26,304 bases of DNA from a bacterium. Its GTDB lineage: Bacteria > UBA9089 > UBA9088. Positions within the stretch are counted from its first letter, which is position 1. Every line of letters begins with the position of its first letter. The stretch covers positions 1-26,304 of the forward strand of contig DNCM01000130.1 in the NCBI GenBank assembly GCA_003498085.1. Reading direction: 5' to 3'. The notes beneath the pieces were generated by a model. The model made no database searches, was not told the DNA's origin, and saw nothing but the letters and a program-made list of their open reading frames with translations. Positions 2,640 through 13,534 of this stretch are shown piece by piece. The position numbers and the translations under genes are program-made.

Positions 2640-5045
2640 ATGGCCGAGATTGTAGAGTCTTATATTGAAAATGAAATGAGGGCTTCCTACCTCGACTATG
2701 CCATGTCGGTAATCGTTGGAAGGGCACTTCCTGATGTTCGTGATGGTCTTAAACCTGTTCACAGAAGAATCCTATATGCAATGTCTGAACTTGACCTTGG
2801 AGCAGAAAAGCCTTACAAAAAGTCTGCAAGGATTGTTGGTGAAGTTTTGGGGAAGTATCATCCACATGGAGATCAGGCAGTATATGATGCCTTGGTAAGG
2901 ATGGCCCAGGATTTCTCAATAAGATATCCACTTGTCGATGGACAGGGAAATTTTGGTTCAATTGATGGTGACCCACCTGCTGCAATGAGATATACAGAAG
3001 TTCGATCTTTCCCCATTACCCAAACCTTACTTCAAGACATAGAAGATGAAACCGTTGATTTTTCCCCAAACTTTGATGAGAGCTTGAAAGAACCTGTTGT
3101 TTTGCCATCTGTCCTTCCAAACCTCCTCGTAAATGGTTCATCTGGTATTGCAGTTGGCATGGCAACTAATATTCCGCCACATAACCTCTCTGAGGTGATA
3201 TCTACAATAATCGCAACCATTGATAATCCAGAAATTACTATCGATGAACTTATGAATATCATGCCAGGTCCCGACTTCCCCACAGGTGGATATATCGTTG
3301 GTACATCCGGAATAAAGTCTGCATATGAGAATGGCCAAGGGATTATCATAATAAGGGGGAAAGCAGTGATTGAAAAGCAGGAGACAGGAAGGGAGAGGAT
3401 AGTAATAACAGAGATCCCATATCAGGTCAATAAAAGAAATCTTATTGAGAGAATAGTTGAATTAAACAAGGAAAAGCCGTTGGGAGTTTCTGAGTTGAGG
3501 GATGAGTCTTCTAGGGATGGAATAAGAATTGCTTTGGAGGTAAAAAAGGATGAAAACCCGCAGGTTATTCTAAACAAGCTATATAAGCATACACAACTTC
3601 AGACAAGTTTTGGAATCATCTTCCTTGCCATAAATGAAAAGCAACCAGAGGTGATGAATCTAAAAAGACTCATTGATCTATATATTGAACATAGAAATGA
3701 AGTAATCACAAAGAGGTCACAATATCGGTTAAGAATTACAGAGGATAGACTTCACATCCTTGAGGGACTTAAGATTGCTCAGAAGAATATCGATGAAATA
3801 ATAAAGATAATAAGGGGTGCAAAAGATACGAAAGAGGCGAGGAAGGCGATAATTACAAAATTTTTGCTTTCAGAAAAACAGGCACAGGCAATACTTGACA
3901 TGCAACTTAAGGCACTTACAAGGCTTGAAGCAGGAAAGATAGAGAAGGAATATCTTGAACTTATAAAAAAGGCCGAATATCTTAAAAACCTCCTTTCTTC
4001 CCATAGAAAAATATTGGAGGTTATAAAGGATGAATTGCTGGAAATAAACAAAAAATTTGGTGATGAGAGAAGGACTGTGATTATTCCAGAGGAAGAAGAG
4101 TTTAGAATGGAGGATTTGATAAAAGAGGAGGATGTTGTAATTACTGTTTCATATTTTGGCTATATCAAAAGGATTCCTGTAAGCGTATATAAAAAACAGC
4201 ATCGTGGAGGAATTGGAATTACTGGTGTTGAATTAAGAGAGGAGGATTTTGCAAGTAGGCTTTTTATTGTATCAACCCATGATTTTCTCTTAATAACAAC
4301 AAACAAAGGTAGATTGTACTGGCTTAAGGTCTATAACATTCCAGAGGGAGGAAGAATTAGTCGTGGAAAACCAATAATCAATCTTATACCTGTTGGAAGT
4401 GATGAAAAAATCTCTGGAGTCATTCCTGTCCGTGAATTTAAAGATGGGTATATCATTATGGCAACAAGGAATGGGAAGATAAAGAAGACAGCAATTTCGG
4501 AATTTTCAAACCCAAGGCAAAAAGGGATAATTGCAATGGATGTAAAAGATGGTGACAGCCTTATTTCCTGCTCTCTAACAAGCGGAGAAGATGAGATTGT
4601 TCTTTCATCAAAGAAGGGGAAAGCACTAAAATTTAATGAAAAAGACATAAGGGCTATGGGGAGGACAGCGAGTGGTGTTATTGGGATGAGATTTGATAAA
4701 GGAGATTTTCTTGTCGGAATGGGGGTTGTAAAGGAGGGGAAAAGCCTCCTTACAATTACAGAAAATGGCTATGGAAAAAGAAGCAATTTTTCACTTTATC
4801 CTTTGAAAAAAAGGGGAGGAAGAGGTGTTCTTGACATAAAGACCGATGAGAGAAATGGGGATGTCGTTTCAATACTTGAAGTTTCCGATACCGATGAGAT
4901 TGTTGTAATAACATCTAGTGGTATGGTCATAAGACTTTCTGTCTCATCCATTCGTCAGATTGGAAGGAATACGAAGGGCGTTTCTATTGTCAGGTTAAAA
5001 AATAACGATAAAGTTGTTGCGTGCGATATTCTCGTTGGTGAGTGA
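2640..5045 (+). CDS. gyrA: DNA gyrase subunit A
   Basis: [33 protein letters not shown], catalytic AAMRYTE, GyrA-box-like QHRGGIG and C-terminal beta-pinwheel repeats. Confidence 0.96.
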
Positions 5046-5049
5046 TTAA

Positions 5050-5077
5050 GGATTTTGAGATTTGGAAATTGGGATTT
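5050..5077. repeat. Imperfect 7-bp tandem repeat
   Basis: GGATTTT GAGATTT GGAAATT GGGATTT between the gyrA stop and the small ORF at 5103. Confidence 0.55.
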
Positions 5078-5102
5078 TAACTGTTTTTATAGGGGGTGAA
5101 GA

Positions 5103-5345
5103 ATGGAGATATTAGGAGTTTGCATGGCTGTAATGAGCCTTTGTCTTACAGCAATAGGTATAACCGGTGTTTATGTTTGGAAAGCTAATGGTAAGATTCA
5201 AGTCCAAATAATGCAAGGTTTAGAAAGAATTGAACAAGGGATCGAAAAAATTGAGGAGAGTCAAAAGGAGATAGCACAGATGCTTTTTAACCAAACAAAG
5301 ATATTAGAAAAGATTGAGGGGAAAATTCCCTCTTCTACTGGTTAA
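5103..5345 (+). CDS. Small hypothetical membrane protein (N-terminal TM helix plus coiled coil), 80 aa
   Basis: SD-like GGGGGTGA; hydrophobic residues 3-25, then the heptad pattern LERIEQGIEKIEESQKEI. Confidence 0.7.
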   Translation: MEILGVCMAVMSLCLTAIGITGVYVWKANGKIQVQIMQGLERIEQGIEKIEESQKEIAQMLFNQTKILEKIEGKIPSSTG

Positions 5346-5371
5346 TGTGAAGAAAGGGGTATTTTATCTAG

Positions 5372-5854
5372 CTAAAATATACTTTTTCCATTAGAGTCGA
5401 TTCCAACATAAAGTGGGAAATCTTCTATCTCCAACTTATAAACTGCCTCACATCCAAACTCTGGATAGGCAACAACCTCGGCTTTTTTAACAAAATTTTT
5501 ATAATATGCCCCTGCACCACCAACTGCAACAAAATATACAACTCGGTATAATTTAATTGCTTCAATTACCTCTTTTGATCTCGGTCCTTTTCCAATCATC
5601 CCTGCAAGTCCTTGGGAAAGTAGAAAAGGTGTCCATTCGTCCATTCTACTAGATGTTGTTGGGCCACAAGAACCTATAATCTCACCTGGTCTTGTTGGCG
5701 TTGGTCCTGTATAGTAAATAACTTGATCTTTAACATCGAATGGAAAGCCGCGCTTGTGCACTTTGTCCCTTGCGGTGTAAATTGTTCCGGAAAGAAAAAC
5801 CCTATCTCCTGCTTTCAAATCATACAAAAGCCCTCTTTCTTCTGGTATCTTCAT
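5372..5854 (-). CDS. Class I Fe-S fumarate hydratase/tartrate dehydratase, beta subunit
   Basis: LKAGDRVFLSGTIYTARD, GPTTSSRMD, MIGKG, GGAG motifs; 4-nt overlap with the alpha subunit. Confidence 0.9.
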   Translation of the reverse strand: MKIPEERGLLYDLKAGDRVFLSGTIYTARDKVHKRGFPFDVKDQVIYYTGPTPTRPGEIIGSCGPTTSSRMDEWTPFLLSQGLAGMIGKGPRSKEVIEAIKLYRVVYFVAVGGAGAYYKNFVKKAEVVAYPEFGCEAVYKLEIEDFPLYVGIDSNGKSIF

Positions 5855-6681
5855 AAGATTGCTTTTTTATACCGTGTGGCATAACATCCGATATTTATTG
5901 CCATTGGAAGAGAACCAATATGACAAGGATGAGTTTCAATACGAACAGCAAGTGCTGTTGTCTTTCCAGAAAGACCTCCGGGTCCAATTCCAAGCCTGTT
6001 TATTCTAGAAAGAAGACTATTTTCTAGCTCTGCTATTTCTTTGTCAGGATTGAGAAATTCCCTAGTCAAAGCTTTTTTTGAAAGAAAGCAAGATCTTTCC
6101 ATATCACCGCCAATACCAATGCCAACAATGATTGGAGGGCAGGCATAGGGTGCTTTATCTTTAATGTAATCAACAACAATATCCGGTATCTTTTCTTGCT
6201 CATGGGGTTTTAGCATAAAAACACCTCCTTGATTTTCACTTCCAGCACCCTTTGCAATAAGAAGAATTTTTATATTATCTTCATTTACAAATTCTGTATA
6301 AACAATCGCAGGGGTATTATCGCCTGTATTTGTCCTATTAAATGGAGAAAAAACAATGGATGCCCTGAGACAACCCTCTTTATATCCCTTCTTTACTCCT
6401 TCTTGTACTGCAGAATAAATGTCAAAATCAATAATAAGTTCCCTTCCTATCTCCAAAAAAACAGAAACAACCCCTGTGTCCTGGCAAATAGGAATCTTTT
6501 TATCATGAGCAATCCTTGCGTTTTCAATAAGGATAGAAAGGACCTCTCTTGGCCTTTCATCAGTTTCATTCTCTCTTGCCCTAATGAGTGCTTTAACAAT
6601 AGATAACGGAAGGTTGTAATTTGCCTCCTTGCAGAGTAGGACTACTGTATCAACGAACTTTTCTTTTTCTATCTTTTTCAA
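5851..6681 (-). CDS. Class I Fe-S fumarate hydratase/tartrate dehydratase, alpha subunit
   Basis: PICQDTG, GAGSEN, ACPP, HPCHIGSLP, NIGCYATR. The likely start is TTG at 6681 after SD AAGGA; the ORF track start of 6705 lies further inside exbD. Confidence 0.9.
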   Translation of the reverse strand: MKKIEKEKFVDTVVLLCKEANYNLPLSIVKALIRARENETDERPREVLSILIENARIAHDKKIPICQDTGVVSVFLEIGRELIIDFDIYSAVQEGVKKGYKEGCLRASIVFSPFNRTNTGDNTPAIVYTEFVNEDNIKILLIAKGAGSENQGGVFMLKPHEQEKIPDIVVDYIKDKAPYACPPIIVGIGIGGDMERSCFLSKKALTREFLNPDKEIAELENSLLSRINRLGIGPGGLSGKTTALAVRIETHPCHIGSLPMAINIGCYATRYKKAIL

Positions 6682-7078
6682 TTTCCTTTTCTGTTGCAAT
6701 AGCAATCCTTTCTGCCCCTGCCCTCTTTGCTATATCCATAATAGCAACTGCATCACCCAAAGAAATCGTTTTATCTCCCCTTATGATGACAAGTTTATCC
6801 TCTTTTTCCATAAGGGATTTTCTCAAGTATTCCAAAAGTAAAGCCTCCTTAACAAGATTGTCATTAATGGACACATTCTTTTCTTTATCGATTGTTACAA
6901 CAATTGCCTCTGGATTTGGAGTCCCCATGATTGTTGAAGGAAGACTGACTTTTATCCCTTGATACATAAGAAATGGTGTTGCAATCATAAATACTATTAA
7001 AAGAACAAGAAAGACATCTGTAAGGGGCGTTATGTTTATTTCAGATATAACCTTGTCTTCTTCTAAAAGCTCTGCCAT
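6650..7078 (-). CDS. ExbD/TolR family biopolymer transport protein
   Basis: EINITPLTDVFLVLLIVFMI TM helix with the conserved Asp; C-terminal VIIRGDKTISLGDAVAIMD. Confidence 0.9.
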   Translation of the reverse strand: MAELLEEDKVISEINITPLTDVFLVLLIVFMIATPFLMYQGIKVSLPSTIMGTPNPEAIVVTIDKEKNVSINDNLVKEALLLEYLRKSLMEKEDKLVIIRGDKTISLGDAVAIMDIAKRAGAERIAIATEKEIEKDRKRKVR

Positions 7079-7085
7079 TTTATTA

Positions 7086-7730
7086 TTACCATCCCTTTCT
7101 GTCTCCCATCAAATCAACCAACCTTTGTGAATACATATGGAGTTCATGGATTATCTCGGATGCCTTTATTTGAAAGTAGTTATAAGAAACAACACCCATC
7201 ACTCCAACAATAAGACCTCCTGCTGTTGCAATTAAAGCCTCCGCAATACCACCTGCAACGACATTCATCCCAGAAGCCCCTGTTGCCGCAATACCCATAA
7301 ATGCCCTCATGATTCCAATTACAGTCCCGAATAGTCCAACAAATGGTGCAATACTTCCAATTGTTCCAAGAATCCATACATTCTTTCTCATCTTCTTAAA
7401 TTCACTATCTTGTGCCCTCCTTATTGCATCCAAAAACTCCTCTTTGCTTCTGTCGTGCTTGAGGAGACCAGCCTTAAATATCCTTCCAAGCTGCCCTCCT
7501 GTAATATCACAGATAGTAATAGCCTCCATTATCCCACCTTTAATAACGATATCCTCAATCCTAAAGATGAATTCCTCTGCATCTTGGGCAAGTCTCCTTG
7601 TTCCAAAACAAAGCCTTCTCCATTTATCTATGGCTATCCAGACACCAACAAAAGAACAAATACCTAAAGGAATCATGGCAATTCCCCCTTTCTTTATAAA
7701 TTCCCATAAAGAAACACCTTCAAATTCCAT
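7086..7730 (-). CDS. MotA/TolQ/ExbB proton channel family protein
   Basis: LGTIGSIAPFVGLFGTVIGIMRAF and GIAEALIATAGGL; directly upstream of the exbD/tolR gene. Confidence 0.9.
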   Translation of the reverse strand: MEFEGVSLWEFIKKGGIAMIPLGICSFVGVWIAIDKWRRLCFGTRRLAQDAEEFIFRIEDIVIKGGIMEAITICDITGGQLGRIFKAGLLKHDRSKEEFLDAIRRAQDSEFKKMRKNVWILGTIGSIAPFVGLFGTVIGIMRAFMGIAATGASGMNVVAGGIAEALIATAGGLIVGVMGVVSYNYFQIKASEIIHELHMYSQRLVDLMGDRKGW

Positions 7731-7747
7731 AGCCTAAAAATTATATC

Positions 7748-8458
7748 TTAAGACAAATTTAATTGTCTAGTTTTTTCATAATAAACCTTTATACCTTTAA
7801 GGGTAAGGTCTTCATCTACCTTAAAATGATCGGTGAATAAACTACTTATATTTCCTGTAAGTATTACATCTGCCTTACCAATCTCTTTTTTTATCATCTT
7901 TGCTATTCCCTCTATCTGGGCAATCGCGCCATAGAATATCCCAGATCGTAATGCTTGTTCTGTATCATTACCAATTAAAAAATCTGGTTTTTTAATCTCT
8001 ATAGGTTCAAGCAATGCCGCCTTTTTCCATAGGAATGAAGCAGAAGTTTCAATCCCAGGCAGGATACAACCACCGATATAATACCCATTCTTATCAACGA
8101 CATCAAAAACCGTTGCTGTTCCAAGATCAACGATGATCATTGGAGGTCTATAAAAATAAAGACCAGCCAAAACATTCGCAATCCTATCCTGACCTATCTT
8201 GTTCTTATTTTTGATAGTTGTCTTTATATCTCCGATAGATACAAATAAAGGTTTAATCCCGAAATTTCTTGATATTTCAATAAACTTTTGGTTTTCCTTT
8301 GGCACAACAGATGATATACAGATTGCAGAAGGTTTTATCTTTTTAAATATATTTTCAGGAGATATACCTGTTGGAATATTTTCTCTAAAAGTAATTTTGT
8401 CCTCCAAAAAAAGCCCAAACTTCGTCCAAGTATTTCCAATATCAATACACAAGAGCAT
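7748..8458 (-). CDS. coaX: Type III pantothenate kinase
   Basis: IDIGNT, SSVVP, GQDR, VDLGTAT, GGCILPG. Start placed at ATG 8458; the ORF track gives 8473. Confidence 0.93.
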   Translation of the reverse strand: MLLCIDIGNTWTKFGLFLEDKITFRENIPTGISPENIFKKIKPSAICISSVVPKENQKFIEISRNFGIKPLFVSIGDIKTTIKNKNKIGQDRIANVLAGLYFYRPPMIIVDLGTATVFDVVDKNGYYIGGCILPGIETSASFLWKKAALLEPIEIKKPDFLIGNDTEQALRSGIFYGAIAQIEGIAKMIKKEIGKADVILTGNISSLFTDHFKVDEDLTLKGIKVYYEKTRQLNLS

Positions 8459-9059
8459 TCTCTGAAATTTCAATGGCCCTTTCCTTTATTTCAGGAATAA
8501 AACTATCAAGTTTATCTAATGTCAAATAGAGCATTTCCATTTGGCCAAGAACCGAAAAAAATATCCCTTCTTTGTCTACTTCTTTTTTTAACTCATTTTT
8601 TATAGATGTCGCACAGTTTGGAAGGTCCTTAATATCAACATTTACATTTATTCCAACACCAACAATTACCCAATTTATATATGAAAGGCTTGAGCTTGAT
8701 TCTATAAGGATGCCACAGAGTTTTTTATCATTTATGTAAAGGTCGTTCGGGAATTTTATCAAAGGAATAAGCCCTGTTTTTTCCTCTATCCCTTTACTTA
8801 TTGCAAGAGCGTTTGCAATGGAAAAAATTGACATTTTGGAAACCAAAAGGTTATAAGGAAATAAAATCACGGAAAACCACAGTCCACCAAAGGGAGATTC
8901 CCATCTGTCACCCTTTCTTCCCCTTCCATCTGTCTGAACATCGGAAATGACAACCTCACCGCTATTACAACCCACAGCAATGAGACTCCTTGCAACATCA
9001 TTTGTTGACCCGATTATATCAAAATGGTGGATTTTATTTAATAAAAACCCTGCTCGCAC
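8442..9059 (-). CDS. birA: Biotin-[acetyl-CoA carboxylase] ligase, catalytic domain only
   Basis: STND, QTDGRGRKG..WESP, KFPNDL..KKLCGILIE, GVGINV. No N-terminal HTH and no C-terminal domain. Confidence 0.88.
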   Translation of the reverse strand: MRAGFLLNKIHHFDIIGSTNDVARSLIAVGCNSGEVVISDVQTDGRGRKGDRWESPFGGLWFSVILFPYNLLVSKMSIFSIANALAISKGIEEKTGLIPLIKFPNDLYINDKKLCGILIESSSSLSYINWVIVGVGINVNVDIKDLPNCATSIKNELKKEVDKEGIFFSVLGQMEMLYLTLDKLDSFIPEIKERAIEISENALVY

Positions 9060-10509
9060 TACTTTCTGCTTCCTTTAAAGAGGATTCGGCATTATATAGT
9101 AGTTCTTTATAATCTATTACTGAGCTATGAAATTTTGTTACTCCAACAACTATAGGAAGATTTATCTGGGATAAGACCTCCATTTTTATCCTTCCTATAA
9201 AGCTTAAAATATCCTTGTCTTGAAATGCATGAATAAGGATATAAAACTTACTATCTTTACTTGCCACAATATCCTCCTTTCTTGTTTGAAAGTTTACTAT
9301 GATTCCAAGTCTTTGCAAAAGAGAGGGTTCAGGGCTTACTATATCTGGCTTAAGAATAGCAATATAAAATGTATCGTTTATCCTCTTTGCCCTTTCCATC
9401 TCCCTTCTTACCGCCTCCTCAAAATAGTAATAATTAAAAAGTGTTGTTAGTTTATCTGTAACAAGAAGTCTATCTATCTCTCTAGAAAGTCTTGTATTAT
9501 CTATAAAGAGGGATGATATACTTGCAATTATCCTTAAAAATCTTTGCTCCTCAAGGCTAAATACCCTTTCTTTTTTACATCCGACAAGAAAGATTCCCAT
9601 TTTTTCACTTTTTATCATTAAAGGAAGAGAAACAAGGGATAAAATTCCCATTTTACGATATGGAGTAAGGGGGGGCCTATCATCTTTTTCAATGTTTTCA
9701 ATCGCACAAAGCCTTCCATTAAGTATAACTTCATCCATCCATTCTTTTGTCTTTTCAGAGCCTCCAATAAGGTCATCACCTGCAACAACCTTAAGCCTTC
9801 TTCCTTCCATAGCAGCGATAAGGTTTATATCGGTCTTAAGGTATGAAGAAACAGAATGTAGAATAGAAGAAAGCCCCTCAGTTAGGGTCTGAGTCTTATC
9901 TATTTGGAGTGAAATTTTATAAATCTCTTCAAACTCCCTTTTTTCCTTTTCTATCTTGTTCAACCTTTCCTGCATCTGTGCCTGCAACAGAGCAACCCTT
10001 CTTGCTTCATATTCAACATCCCTTTCAGCAAAGCGCACCTCTTGGGCAATATAAGAGGAAAATCCCCATACACCAAGGAATAAAAGGGTTTTCATGATGA
10101 ATGGAATCCATTCCTTGGAGGGATCTCCAACAAAAAATAGAATATAGATAAGAACTATTCCAAATGTAAAAGAAAGAGAAAAGGATTGTTTGTAATAGCA
10201 TGCAGAAAATGCAATAGGGGCAAAATAGAAAAGAACAAATGGACTTTGTATTCCACCTGTTGAATAAACGATGGCTGTTATAAAAGAAATATCAAGGATG
10301 CTCTCGGAGTAATAAACCTTGCTTAATTTTATTTTTGAAATGATGTATCCAGCTAATAAATTGTATATTCCAAGGATAAGGATTGGGAAAAGAATCTCAG
10401 GTTTTTCTTTCCATTCTAAGTACTTTATCTCAAGAACAAGGATAGCTAAAACCCATATGAACCACCTCACCTTATTTGCTATCCAAAAGATTCTCTCTAC
10501 AAAAGTCAT
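9034..10509 (-). CDS. Membrane protein with GAF and strongly degenerate GGDEF domain (RxxD retained)
   Basis: About 5-6 N-terminal TM helices with D..ITAIVYSTGG..SPF, a coiled coil, a GAF domain (LVSLPL..KSEKMG), then TDKLTTLFNY. The GGDEF motif is replaced by ASKDSKF; RKED is at 9271-9282. Confidence 0.8.
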   Translation of the reverse strand: MTFVERIFWIANKVRWFIWVLAILVLEIKYLEWKEKPEILFPILILGIYNLLAGYIISKIKLSKVYYSESILDISFITAIVYSTGGIQSPFVLFYFAPIAFSACYYKQSFSLSFTFGIVLIYILFFVGDPSKEWIPFIMKTLLFLGVWGFSSYIAQEVRFAERDVEYEARRVALLQAQMQERLNKIEKEKREFEEIYKISLQIDKTQTLTEGLSSILHSVSSYLKTDINLIAAMEGRRLKVVAGDDLIGGSEKTKEWMDEVILNGRLCAIENIEKDDRPPLTPYRKMGILSLVSLPLMIKSEKMGIFLVGCKKERVFSLEEQRFLRIIASISSLFIDNTRLSREIDRLLVTDKLTTLFNYYYFEEAVRREMERAKRINDTFYIAILKPDIVSPEPSLLQRLGIIVNFQTRKEDIVASKDSKFYILIHAFQDKDILSFIGRIKMEVLSQINLPIVVGVTKFHSSVIDYKELLYNAESSLKEAESSASRVFIK

Positions 10510-12083
10510 TTTTTACTCCAGGCAATAACCCTGTTTCCTCCTTGTTCCTTTGCCAAATTTAGTGTTTTATCCGCATAAAGAAGTAGCCCATCGGGTTTTT
10601 TTTCATCCTGTGGAAATGAAGAAATTCCAATGCTTACTGTAATATGCTCTACTCCTTCGATAAAGGTTTTGTTAGATATAGTATTCCTTATCCTTTCTGC
10701 AACCATTATCCCTTCATTCTTATTTGCCTCAGGGAGTATAATTACAAAATTTTCTTCATAAAACCTTGCTAAGAAATCCATTGTTCTTAAACAGCCTGAA
10801 AGAGTAATGGCAATTTCTGAAAGGAGCTGGTTTCCAATGTGCCTTCCGTACTTTTCATTGATTTCGCGAAAATTATCTATATCTATCATGAGGATAGAAA
10901 GTGGAATGGAAATGCGGCTGGCCTTACTGAGCTCTTTTCTAAATATTTCTAAGAAATACCTGTAATTATAAAGCCCAGTCAATCCGTCTGTTATTGCCAT
11001 CCTTTCTATCTCTTCTCTAAGGTAACTGTTTTTTATAGAAAGGCTCGTTCTACATCCAATCAATAGAAGAAACCTTAAATGGTCATCTTCATTAAATTCC
11101 TTGGGATAGGATGAAGCACATATGAATACACCAAGAGGTTCGCCATCAATAATAAGTGGAATACCCATGCAAGAGAACGGACTACCTTTAAAAACTTCTG
11201 GATCATACTTCGAAAGGTCATTTATGATCAAAGGCTCCTTCTTTGCCATAATTCTTCCTGGAAGCTCTTCTCCTATTCTTAACCTATTTTTGAAGAACAA
11301 TTTTCCTCCCTGGCCTATTTTTGCAACAAGCCTTAAATATTCATTATTTTTTTCAAGAAGCCAAATTCCTGCTATATCGATGGCTAAAAAACTTGTGGTT
11401 GCATCGCAAACAGCTTCAAGTTGTTCCTTCAAGCTACTTCCTGTTGGAATTTTTATAGAAATATTATAAACCTCTTGTAAAACTTTATTTTTTTTCTGAA
11501 TTTGAACTACATTATGGTGAAATGCCTTAAGGATATATTTAAGCTTTTCCTTTTCAATCTCAAGCGCCTCCCCTTGATGGATAATTTCTAAACTTAAAAA
11601 TACACTCATTCCACAAACAGCAAAGAAAATGGGAATTTTTAAAGAAAGCATAGAAATGATCTCCTGGGGTGATGCATTTGACAGAAGGGAAACAAAAATA
11701 TAAAGAATACTTATTCCAGTTACAACAAAAAATGTTCTGTAAGGTGAGTAATATACTCCTGCAAACATGATTACAATAAGAAAGAACACCCAGAAAGGAC
11801 TGTTTTGGCCTCCAGTAAGTGCCACTATTCCTGTAATAACTGCAGTATCAATAACAGTTTCTGCATAACATATCTTGGATGTCTTTTCCCAGATTTCATG
11901 CAGTGAAAGGAATTTTGCAATTATGTTATAAATTGCAGTTATTACTAAAAGAAGGTATATATTTATCCAGTTTTCTTCGGGAACAACAGAAAACTGAAGG
12001 CCGAGCAAAATTAAGGTAATGATTAACCATCTAATCTTGTTTGATATCTCGAGTACCTTTTGTGGAAATACTAAATCTTTCAT
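10506..12083 (-). CDS. Membrane protein with GAF and degenerate GGDEF domain (RxxD retained)
   Basis: Same TM module (TGGQNSPF), GAF (CMGIPLIIDGEPLGV), TDGLTGLYNYRYF, IDIDNF. RTMD is at 10776-10787 and the active-site motif reads YEENF (10746-10760). Confidence 0.85.
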   Translation of the reverse strand: MKDLVFPQKVLEISNKIRWLIITLILLGLQFSVVPEENWINIYLLLVITAIYNIIAKFLSLHEIWEKTSKICYAETVIDTAVITGIVALTGGQNSPFWVFFLIVIMFAGVYYSPYRTFFVVTGISILYIFVSLLSNASPQEIISMLSLKIPIFFAVCGMSVFLSLEIIHQGEALEIEKEKLKYILKAFHHNVVQIQKKNKVLQEVYNISIKIPTGSSLKEQLEAVCDATTSFLAIDIAGIWLLEKNNEYLRLVAKIGQGGKLFFKNRLRIGEELPGRIMAKKEPLIINDLSKYDPEVFKGSPFSCMGIPLIIDGEPLGVFICASSYPKEFNEDDHLRFLLLIGCRTSLSIKNSYLREEIERMAITDGLTGLYNYRYFLEIFRKELSKASRISIPLSILMIDIDNFREINEKYGRHIGNQLLSEIAITLSGCLRTMDFLARFYEENFVIILPEANKNEGIMVAERIRNTISNKTFIEGVEHITVSIGISSFPQDEKKPDGLLLYADKTLNLAKEQGGNRVIAWSKK

Positions 12084-12090
12084 TATATCA

Positions 12091-13026
12091 TTACTCCAAA
12101 ATCATCTTAAGTAAAGCCATCCTTATATAGAGTCCATTCTCTGCTTGTTTAAAATAGACAGCCCTTGGGTCAAGATCAATGTCGCTTGGAAGCTCACTTG
12201 TTCTTGGTAACGGATGAAGGATTTTTGTATCTGGTTTAAGTGACAATAGTATTTCCTTATCAACAACATAGGAACCAACTACTGCATTGTATGCCTCCTT
12301 ATTTCTAAACCTTTCTTTTTGAAGTCTTGTTACATAAAGGACATCAAGAATACTCGAAATATCATAAAGATTACAGTTTTCTTTGAAAAAAATATCTTTT
12401 TCTCTTAAGTAGACGGTAATGTCGGATGGTATCCGAAGTGGCTCTGGAGAGATAAAATAAAACTCTATATTTTCCTGATTAGCAAGTAGCCAAACTAAAG
12501 AATGAATGGTTCTACTATATAAAAGATCTCCTAGTAATCCAACTTTCAGGTTGTTTATCCTCCCAAGCTCTTTTTTGATTGTGTATAAATCTAAAAGTGC
12601 TTGTGTTGGATGCTGACCAGGACCATCGCCAGCGTTTATAATAGGGACAGGGGAAACCAAGGATGCCCTTTTTGCAGAACCCTCTTCGTAATGTCTCAAA
12701 ACAATGAGATCGGAGAAACTAGCAACAACCCTTATTGTATCTTCCAGTGTTTCTCCCTTTACCATAGAGGAAAAGTGTGGTGCGTCCTCTGTTGATATAA
12801 TCTCGCCACCAAGTCTTTTCATTGCAGATTCAAAAGAAAGTCTTGTTCTAGTCGATGGTTCATAAAAAAGGGTTGCTAAAATTTTTTTTCTAGGTGTATG
12901 GGAAAGAAGAAGGGAGCTATCACCTGTCTCATCTAACCTTTCCATCCTTTCTGTAAGAGAAAATACCTCTTCTAATAATTCTTTTTTCCTAAATTGTTGA
13001 ACTTCAACAATATGATTAAGTTTCAT
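12091..13026 (-). CDS. pyrB: Aspartate carbamoyltransferase catalytic subunit
   Basis: FYEPSTRTRLSFE, NAGDG..QHPTQALLD, YVTRLQKER, HPLPR. Start is 13026 or 13044. Confidence 0.95.
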   Translation of the reverse strand: MKLNHIVEVQQFRKKELLEEVFSLTERMERLDETGDSSLLLSHTPRKKILATLFYEPSTRTRLSFESAMKRLGGEIISTEDAPHFSSMVKGETLEDTIRVVASFSDLIVLRHYEEGSAKRASLVSPVPIINAGDGPGQHPTQALLDLYTIKKELGRINNLKVGLLGDLLYSRTIHSLVWLLANQENIEFYFISPEPLRIPSDITVYLREKDIFFKENCNLYDISSILDVLYVTRLQKERFRNKEAYNAVVGSYVVDKEILLSLKPDTKILHPLPRTSELPSDIDLDPRAVYFKQAENGLYIRMALLKMILE

Positions 13027-13071
13027 TTTTAAATGATAAGTCATTTTTCATCAAAAAATCAAGAAAAAATA

Positions 13072-13100
13072 TTGACAAAATTTTTAGATATTTTTATTAT
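13072..13100 (+). promoter_or_regulatory. sigma70 promoter upstream of hisI
   Basis: TTGACA (13072-13077)-N17-TATTAT (13095-13100) in the divergent AT-rich spacer. Confidence 0.65.
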
Positions 13101-13228
13101 TTAAACTCTAAAGATTGAATGTTGGCTGAAGAATTAATGTTTTCTTTAACTTTCTTTATTCAATTTTGATTATAAAAAACTTTATATTTTTAGAGTAAAA
13201 AATTGAAGAGGAAACAGACAAAAAGAAG

Positions 13229-13534
13229 ATGAATCTTGTTTTTAAAGATGGGCTTATACCTGCAGTCATTGTTGATGATAGCACAGACGAAGTTCTTATG
13301 CTTGCATATATGAATGAGGAGTCTTTGAAAAAGACTATTTCAGAAAGAAAGACATGGTTCTATAGTAGATCAAGAAAAAAACTTTGGCTTAAAGGAGAAA
13401 CCTCTGGCAATTTTCAGGATGTTATAAGCATATCTTGCGATTGCGATAGGGATTGCTTGCTTATTAGGGTAAAACAACATGGGGTTGCCTGCCATACCGG
13501 AGCAAAATCATGCTTTTTTGAAAAGATATTGTGA
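13229..13534 (+). CDS. hisI: Phosphoribosyl-AMP cyclohydrolase
   Basis: [48 protein letters not shown]. Confidence 0.95.

Follow-up and report, generated by a model that had tools for sequence, protein, structure and literature searches.

Tandem GAF-GGDEF membrane proteins with degenerate active sites and a conserved I-site: candidate c-di-GMP receptors in a Desantisbacteria-like bacterium

Contig DNCM01000130.1 (assembly GCA_003498085.1), the whole 26,304 nucleotides (nt) of which we call the window, carries on its minus strand two adjoining genes, here named A and B, whose products combine a membrane module of six transmembrane (TM) helices, a long helix, a GAF domain and a degenerate GGDEF domain. 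An earlier note on this DNA had described both proteins as catalytically dead-looking and as keeping the I-site for cyclic diguanosine monophosphate (c-di-GMP). We find that the GG[D/E]EF signature is absent from both proteins, and that all three I-site residues, an RxxD motif plus an Arg 30–31 residues downstream, are present in both. In the best reading of the sequences, A, B and C, a third paralog encoded in the same genome, descend from a membrane diguanylate cyclase and are no longer catalytic; the ancestral layout would have been a PilS-like domain of six TM helices (6TM), a signalling helix, GAF and GGDEF. On balance we lean towards A and B being I-site c-di-GMP receptors that would form dimers through the long helix and relay a signal to, or be gated by, the PilS-like membrane domain.

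Active sites and I-site

The GGDEF domain of A (amino acids 363–518; 10530–10997, all window coordinates being on the minus strand) matched the Pfam GGDEF model (PF00990, curated cut-off 23.8 bits) over its full length, with 130.5 bits and an E-value of 6.5e-38. By sequence, B reached 16.7 bits, over model positions 3–38 only, and failed the cut-off. Its residues 348–491 (9037–9468) have a degenerate GGDEF fold, as seen from structural alignment with PleD (1w25; Z-score 19.9, root mean square deviation 1.8 Å over 144 residues, VIA-align) and from a Foldseek match to 3ign (TM-score 0.80). In a HMMER alignment of A with PleD, YEENF (10746–10760) replaces GGEEF 368–372, and the last N of GRHIGN (10830–10847) takes the place of D344, which contacts guanine; the position of PleD R446 is occupied by Gly. 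The A active site is thus degenerate, with D344N and R446G, and keeps the guanine-binding Asn and the phosphate-binding Lys that correspond to PleD N335 and K442; of its own residues D401, D403, N409 and K512 are retained. In B the motif is reduced to KDSKF (9244–9258), a remnant of GGEEF with a one-residue deletion, and the substrate-binding loop FKxxNDxxGHxxG is gone at the site of a nine-residue deletion (9322–9354). In the alignments, both B and C lack one motif residue and 9–11 residues of the substrate loop; substitutions destroyed the active site of A, deletions those of B and C. Motif coordinates were verified by translation. Judged by these features, both A and B look catalytically dead, and this claim of the earlier note is borne out by YEENF and the changes to N and G in A and by the loop and motif deletions in B, the nine-residue loop deletion being one that it had not mentioned.

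The earlier note had also pointed to a change from GD to GN in A. The change is real, but it is not in itself a sign of a dead site, and we rejected it as such evidence, since GN occurs beside an intact GGDEF or GGEEF motif: two other proteins of this genome, at L008 (contig 126) and L009 (contig 12), and the outgroup proteins P0131 and P0142 all combine such a motif with Asn for PleD D344. GN might also be read as a Hypr-GGDEF feature (cyclic GMP-AMP, cGAMP); the published description consulted has Ser, not Asn, at this position, and nothing on Asn was found there.

The I-site, in contrast to the active site, is complete. RTMD of A (R433, D436; 10776–10787) aligns to PleD R359 to D362, and R464 (10692–10694) aligns to PleD R390, the distal Arg of the I-site. 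RKED of B (R410, D413; 9271–9282) falls in the same alignment column as RTMD, with the distal Arg, R440 (9190–9192), at R410+30. In the alignments, RxxD precedes the former GGDEF motif by five residues. Its persistence at the I-site position, claimed earlier for RTMD and RKED, was thus confirmed by the PleD alignment and the shared column; the distal Arg is an addition to that claim.

A lone RxxD in about 500 amino acids is expected by chance, but the register and conservation found here exceed chance. None of the 23 aligned A-type sequences deviates at R433, D436 or R464, and the I-site triad is invariant in 42 aligned sequences. Among 18 degenerate proteins (type B, type C and a fourth type, D), whose mean identity in this domain is 44%, 12 of the 143 columns of the GGDEF domain are invariant, and R410 and R440 are among them; D413 is kept in 16 of the 18, the two exceptions being D-type proteins with a one-residue insertion. 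The I-site is conserved in orthologs down to 31–40% identity. The earlier note had proposed conservation of RxxD in orthologs as a check on its interpretation, and RxxD proved to be conserved in all A-type and nearly all degenerate relatives.

Membrane module and relatives

The 6TM module spans amino acids 9–160 in A (11604–12059) and 3–160 in B (10030–10503). The two share the motifs of the TM module described earlier (NK.RW and D..IT.IV..TGG..SPF): NKIRW (12027–12041) in A and NKVRW (10462–10476) in B, and D..IT..TGGxxSPF, which ends in TGGQNSPF (11793–11816) in A and TGGIQSPF (10237–10260) in B. When residues 1–165 of B were scanned alone, they matched the Pfam family 6TM_PilS (PF25323, cut-off 27 bits) with 28.4 bits; scanned at full length, both proteins matched it weakly, A with 21.7 bits, below the cut-off. 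The same model was matched by 20 of 26 N-terminal fragments of the protein family (best E-value 9.8e-10). In an AlphaFold model of B (mean predicted local distance difference test, pLDDT, 87), six TM helices are followed by the GAF domain, another long helix and the GGDEF fold. According to DSSP, one continuous helix, amino acids 134–205 (9895–10110), comprises TM6 and a cytoplasmic signalling helix or coiled coil. The GAF domains lie at amino acids 217–342 of A (11058–11435; Pfam GAF_2, E-value 5.2e-11) and 212–336 of B (9502–9876; GAF_2, E-value 2.5e-7, with matches to GAF structures at Z-scores of 19–20).

By 6TM_PilS, and by weak NCBIfam RegB/ActS matches (E-values of about 1e-4, far below the cut-offs), the membrane domain of A and B resembles that of the RegB and PilS sensor kinases, in which, however, the output side is a kinase and not GAF plus a dead GGDEF domain. 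The quinone-sensing membrane domain of RegB is marked by the quinone-site motif GGXXNPF plus R31 and Q38 in TM1 (PMC3000548). The A/B family has an invariant Arg in TM1, comparable to R31, and GGxxS(P)F between TM3 and TM4, but the critical Asn is replaced by Ser and Gln is absent at R+7. Because of the replaced Asn we regard the RegB-like resemblance as a lead only; the motif match to a quinone sensor is partial, and we found no evidence of quinone or pilin binding by the A/B membrane domain. The genome has two UbiA-type prenyltransferases, which decide nothing on quinone sensing.

Relatives of A retain successive stages of active-site loss. Desantisbacteria-labelled A-type proteins, 37–41% identical to A, have the canonical RYGGEEF with GD. 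P0010, about 55% identical, has RFGGEEF with GN, and the closest orthologs of A (58–63% identity) have RFGEEEF with GN. Compared by sequence, A-type proteins decay stepwise, from GGEEF through GEEEF to YEENF, with the window copy the most decayed. The architecture 6TM_PilS-GAF-GGDEF is widespread and is annotated as cyclase. Active proteins of this architecture in the phylum, named 'sensor domain-containing diguanylate cyclases' (P0011–P0021 and P0129), belong to the same clade as A and B and share their TM motifs and I-site; they differ in having kept RYGGEEF, GD and the full substrate loop, all lost in A, B and C.

B-type proteins are rare. A word-indexed search gave six; when 1.84 billion representatives were searched exhaustively, only two more distant degenerate relatives came to light, the C-type ortholog P0128 and the D-type P0130, a 315-amino-acid fragment. 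C is encoded, at full length, in the genome of the window (G000 contig 73, 2849–4327, plus strand; L050 2849–4327; 492 amino acids) and is 34–36% identical to B. It has 6TM, GAF and a dead GGDEF domain, of which Pfam detects GAF alone; RADD and ERIK are present and the substrate loop is deleted. The gene lies between leuA and the gene for a YfhO-like membrane protein. Across 25 species genomes of the phylum, from eight families, B and C were found only in the family of the window and its sister family, which make up one order, with C orthologs (50–67% identity) in both. Type D is represented by a gene of one sister-family genome, G020, and by the metagenome fragment P0130. Of the other families, two have a single A-type copy with intact GGEEF and four have no member. 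P0127, labelled Candidatus Desantisbacteria at NCBI, is 87–90% identical to sister-family B proteins, from which we infer that the phylum of the window is Desantisbacteria-like.

In a maximum-likelihood tree, near A, far A and B form one clade against the outgroups (support by the Shimodaira–Hasegawa-like approximate likelihood ratio test, SH-aLRT, 99), and each is monophyletic. The B clade has an SH-aLRT of 100 and a long stem (0.68); the branching order of near A, far A and B is not resolved (82). Since the monophyletic B clade spans two families, B appears to have been maintained since an old duplication.

The locus and its neighbourhood across genomes

Gene A (10506–12083) encodes 525 amino acids, with orthologs at 55–63% identity, and gene B (9034–10509) encodes 491; both were placed where the earlier note had them. 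The TGA stop of A overlaps the ATG of B as ATGA, with GGAG 7 nt upstream, and the proteins are 30% identical over 409 amino acids (BLASTP, E-value 2e-47), which identifies them as paralogs and upholds the earlier description of an ATGA-coupled paralogous pair. They stand in a minus-strand run, with small gaps or overlaps, of pyrB, A, B, birA, coaX, exbB, exbD and the genes for fumarase alpha and beta. Pfam confirmed the neighbours that the earlier note had named, and a Pfam survey of the neighbourhood agreed with it that polysaccharide genes are missing near the pair; PelG is absent from the genome as well. The gene pyrB (aspartate carbamoyltransferase; 12091–13044, Pfam) lies 7 nt upstream of A. 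The start of birA (biotin-protein ligase, 205 amino acids; 8442–9059, Pfam) is overlapped for 26 nt by the end of B, and coaX (type III pantothenate kinase; 7748–8473, Pfam E-value 7e-47) comes next. The product of birA in the window has at most 205 amino acids, counted from a GTG start within the 3′ end of B, and no BPL_C match; its orthologs have 234–247 amino acids with a weak BPL_C match. B is probably co-transcribed with birA-coaX and translationally coupled. A promoter and terminator scan of positions 5000–13400 gave counts not above those of shuffles, and Rfam matched no family in the window, c-di-GMP riboswitches included.

The arrangement in other genomes bears on the earlier proposal of a heterodimeric c-di-GMP receptor made of A and B, taken here as an obligate pair. 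The ATGA overlap with an internal Shine-Dalgarno sequence, and TM and helix modules that are common to both proteins and could pair, speak for it. A and B are also adjacent in all four genomes of the window's family (in one case at a contig end). They are adjacent nowhere else, however. In the sister family, B precedes birA without a neighbouring A, and an A-type copy was not found in three genomes of that family (78–87% complete). On a JGI contig (L003) B follows ftsK without A, the A-type gene of the same sample lying elsewhere, and on L017 the gene immediately before birA-coaX is of A-type, without a B in between. Moreover, paralogs C and D occur elsewhere. This distribution does not fit an obligate pair; we consider the heterodimer unlikely, and the data do not require A and B to pair with each other. 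What does recur is the position of B, directly upstream of birA in seven of seven readable loci (in the window's family four genomes, in its sister family two, and the JGI contig). The neighbourhood of orthologs, another check that the earlier note had proposed, hence supports the link of B to birA but not the A-B pairing beyond the window's family.

Far and basal A-type genes (L005 and L016) adjoin genes for TonB, ExbB, a TonB-dependent receptor and a FecCD-type ABC transporter, and in the window exbB and exbD follow coaX. A recurrent link of A-type genes to TonB-dependent uptake is possible.

I-site receptors and the alternatives

The window's genome (1.5 Mb, 95% complete) encodes one canonical GAF-GGEEF cyclase, two GGDEF proteins with GN and further degenerate GGDEF domains, and, for degradation, one EAL domain and six HD-GYP-type domains. 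This gene content supports the view that the organism makes and degrades c-di-GMP. PilZ was not found in this genome, nor was PelG, and PilZ was detected in 2 of the 25 phylum genomes, one of the hits containing two stop codons. Since the turnover enzymes are present and PilZ, the commonest receptor, is not, proteins with an I-site are natural receptor candidates.

Another degenerate GGDEF domain of the genome lies in a 772-amino-acid open reading frame (G000 contig 89, 7315–9630, plus strand; loci L011 919–3237 and L051), between a PocR sensor and a complete beta-ketoacyl-acyl carrier protein (ACP) synthase. It keeps an RKED I-site and has KEDEF for GGEEF. Full-length, single-frame orthologs (46–74% identity) are present in 14 of the 25 genomes and six of the eight families, beside a stand-alone FabF of about 415 amino acids. 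The junction and RKED are conserved in four of four aligned orthologs. A literature search for GGDEF-ketoacyl-synthase fusions gave nothing relevant.

In the receptor reading that we favour, c-di-GMP from the intact cyclases of the genome would bind to the dead GGDEF domains of A and B, at RxxD and the distal Arg. Both proteins would be parallel dimers held by the long helix. Binding would fix the GGDEF domains, and the change would pass through GAF and the helix continuous with TM6 to the 6TM domain, which may act on a membrane partner; alternatively, a signal from the membrane or the GAF domain may gate access to the I-site. A precedent is PelD of Pseudomonas aeruginosa and Bacillus cereus, the receptor of the Pel polysaccharide synthase, in which R367, D370 and R402 bind c-di-GMP and are needed for binding and function (PMC7112168). 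A and B share with it the order of membrane anchor, GAF and degenerate GGDEF, as the earlier note had recognised, together with the same three I-site positions (PMC7112168). They differ from PelD in that their membrane domain is PilS-like 6TM and in that the family derives independently, from a lineage of active cyclases. Membership in the PelD family was excluded: A and B gave no Pfam match to it at E-values up to 1, the top 50 fold matches of B are canonical GGDEF domains and do not include PelD, and both PelG and a pel context are lacking.

Several observations weigh against the receptor reading. Active relatives retain RxxD too, and inheritance could account for part of its persistence. 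In two D-type relatives the motif, RGKED or RGTTD, is out of register by one residue. The C copy of G023 (contig 191, L049) and the D copy of G020 (contig 32) carry an in-frame TAA, and some paralogs may therefore be dispensable; these stop codons reflect either decay of redundant paralogs or assembly error. The decay of A could be ongoing loss of function and not specialisation, and, the birA linkage excepted, neither an output domain nor a conserved partner was identified.

The first of these points is the starting point for the alternative that A and B are sensors of a membrane or GAF ligand, whose dead GGDEF domains bind no nucleotide and whose RxxD and distal Arg are structural or historical remnants. 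RxxD is indeed ancestral to the whole clade, active members included. After the long stems of B and C (branch 0.68), however, 12 of 143 columns stayed invariant with both I-site arginines among them, and these arginines stayed while all substrate-binding positions were lost; we judge this alternative rather improbable.

A and B could instead be pseudo-enzyme regulators: through their TM and helix modules they would associate with an active cyclase paralog and either inhibit it or determine where it is located. Because both half-sites must be active for GGDEF catalysis, a dead partner would be dominant-negative; moreover, the basal A-type P0010 keeps GGEEF, and the B-type P0124 comes from the same metagenome sample. 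In the window's family, however, the sole paralog with a matching TM module is A, which is itself dead, the sister family yielded no A-type copy, and the genome's remaining intact cyclases differ in architecture. With no active paralog with a matching membrane module left in these two families, this alternative is weakened, and we give it a small chance.

The least probable alternative, which we regard as highly doubtful, is that A senses guanosine triphosphate (GTP) bound at its altered active site, as does the GEDEF domain of CC3396 (PdeA of Caulobacter), which binds GTP without catalysis and is regulatory (PMC4823724): the closest orthologs of A have GEEEF, close to GEDEF in that the second Gly is replaced by Glu, and A keeps D401, D403, N409 and K512, but it has gone further, with Y and E for the two glycines, N for the fourth-position Glu, D344N and R446G, and it has no enzymatic output domain to regulate, whereas CC3396 regulates a fused EAL. 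Such GTP sensing is plausible for the GEEEF orthologs and less so for YEENF.

I-site receptors with a dead active site are otherwise represented by YdaK of Bacillus subtilis and PopA of Caulobacter, in which an intact RxxD binds c-di-GMP. YdaK is membrane-anchored, lacks a GAF domain and is encoded in an exopolysaccharide (EPS) operon; PopA is a soluble protein with receiver domains. A PilS-like 6TM domain or a birA-coaX context is not known for either.

The gene birA encodes the biotin ligase that activates acetyl-coenzyme A (CoA) carboxylase, and coaX encodes the enzyme for the initial step in CoA and ACP cofactor synthesis. The B-birA-coaX linkage and the PocR-GGDEF-ketoacyl-synthase fusion together hint at an unusual metabolic output and suggest, speculatively, a link between c-di-GMP and fatty acids. 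That dead GGDEF domains might let c-di-GMP act directly on the metabolism of membrane lipids and cofactors in this PilZ-poor phylum, with A, B and C as membrane-state sensors that tie it to fatty-acid supply, is a conjecture that we think very unlikely.

In public sources A-type and some B-type relatives are named 'diguanylate cyclase', a label that is very probably wrong for A, B and C of this lineage. The family offers a clean natural series from cyclase to putative receptor, running from GGEEF through GGEEF with GN and GEEEF to YEENF with the I-site kept throughout, and next to it old duplicates that lost the substrate loop by deletion and kept the I-site. A membrane sensor of c-di-GMP with a dead GGDEF domain is in itself a fairly ordinary kind of receptor; what stands out here is that A decays in steps, that there are three to four paralogs, that the background is poor in PilZ and that the link to birA is fixed. 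With PilZ almost missing from the phylum, A, B and C are the best candidates for reading c-di-GMP in these Desantisbacteria-like organisms, and if the receptor reading is true, they would be principal c-di-GMP receptors of a phylum almost without PilZ.

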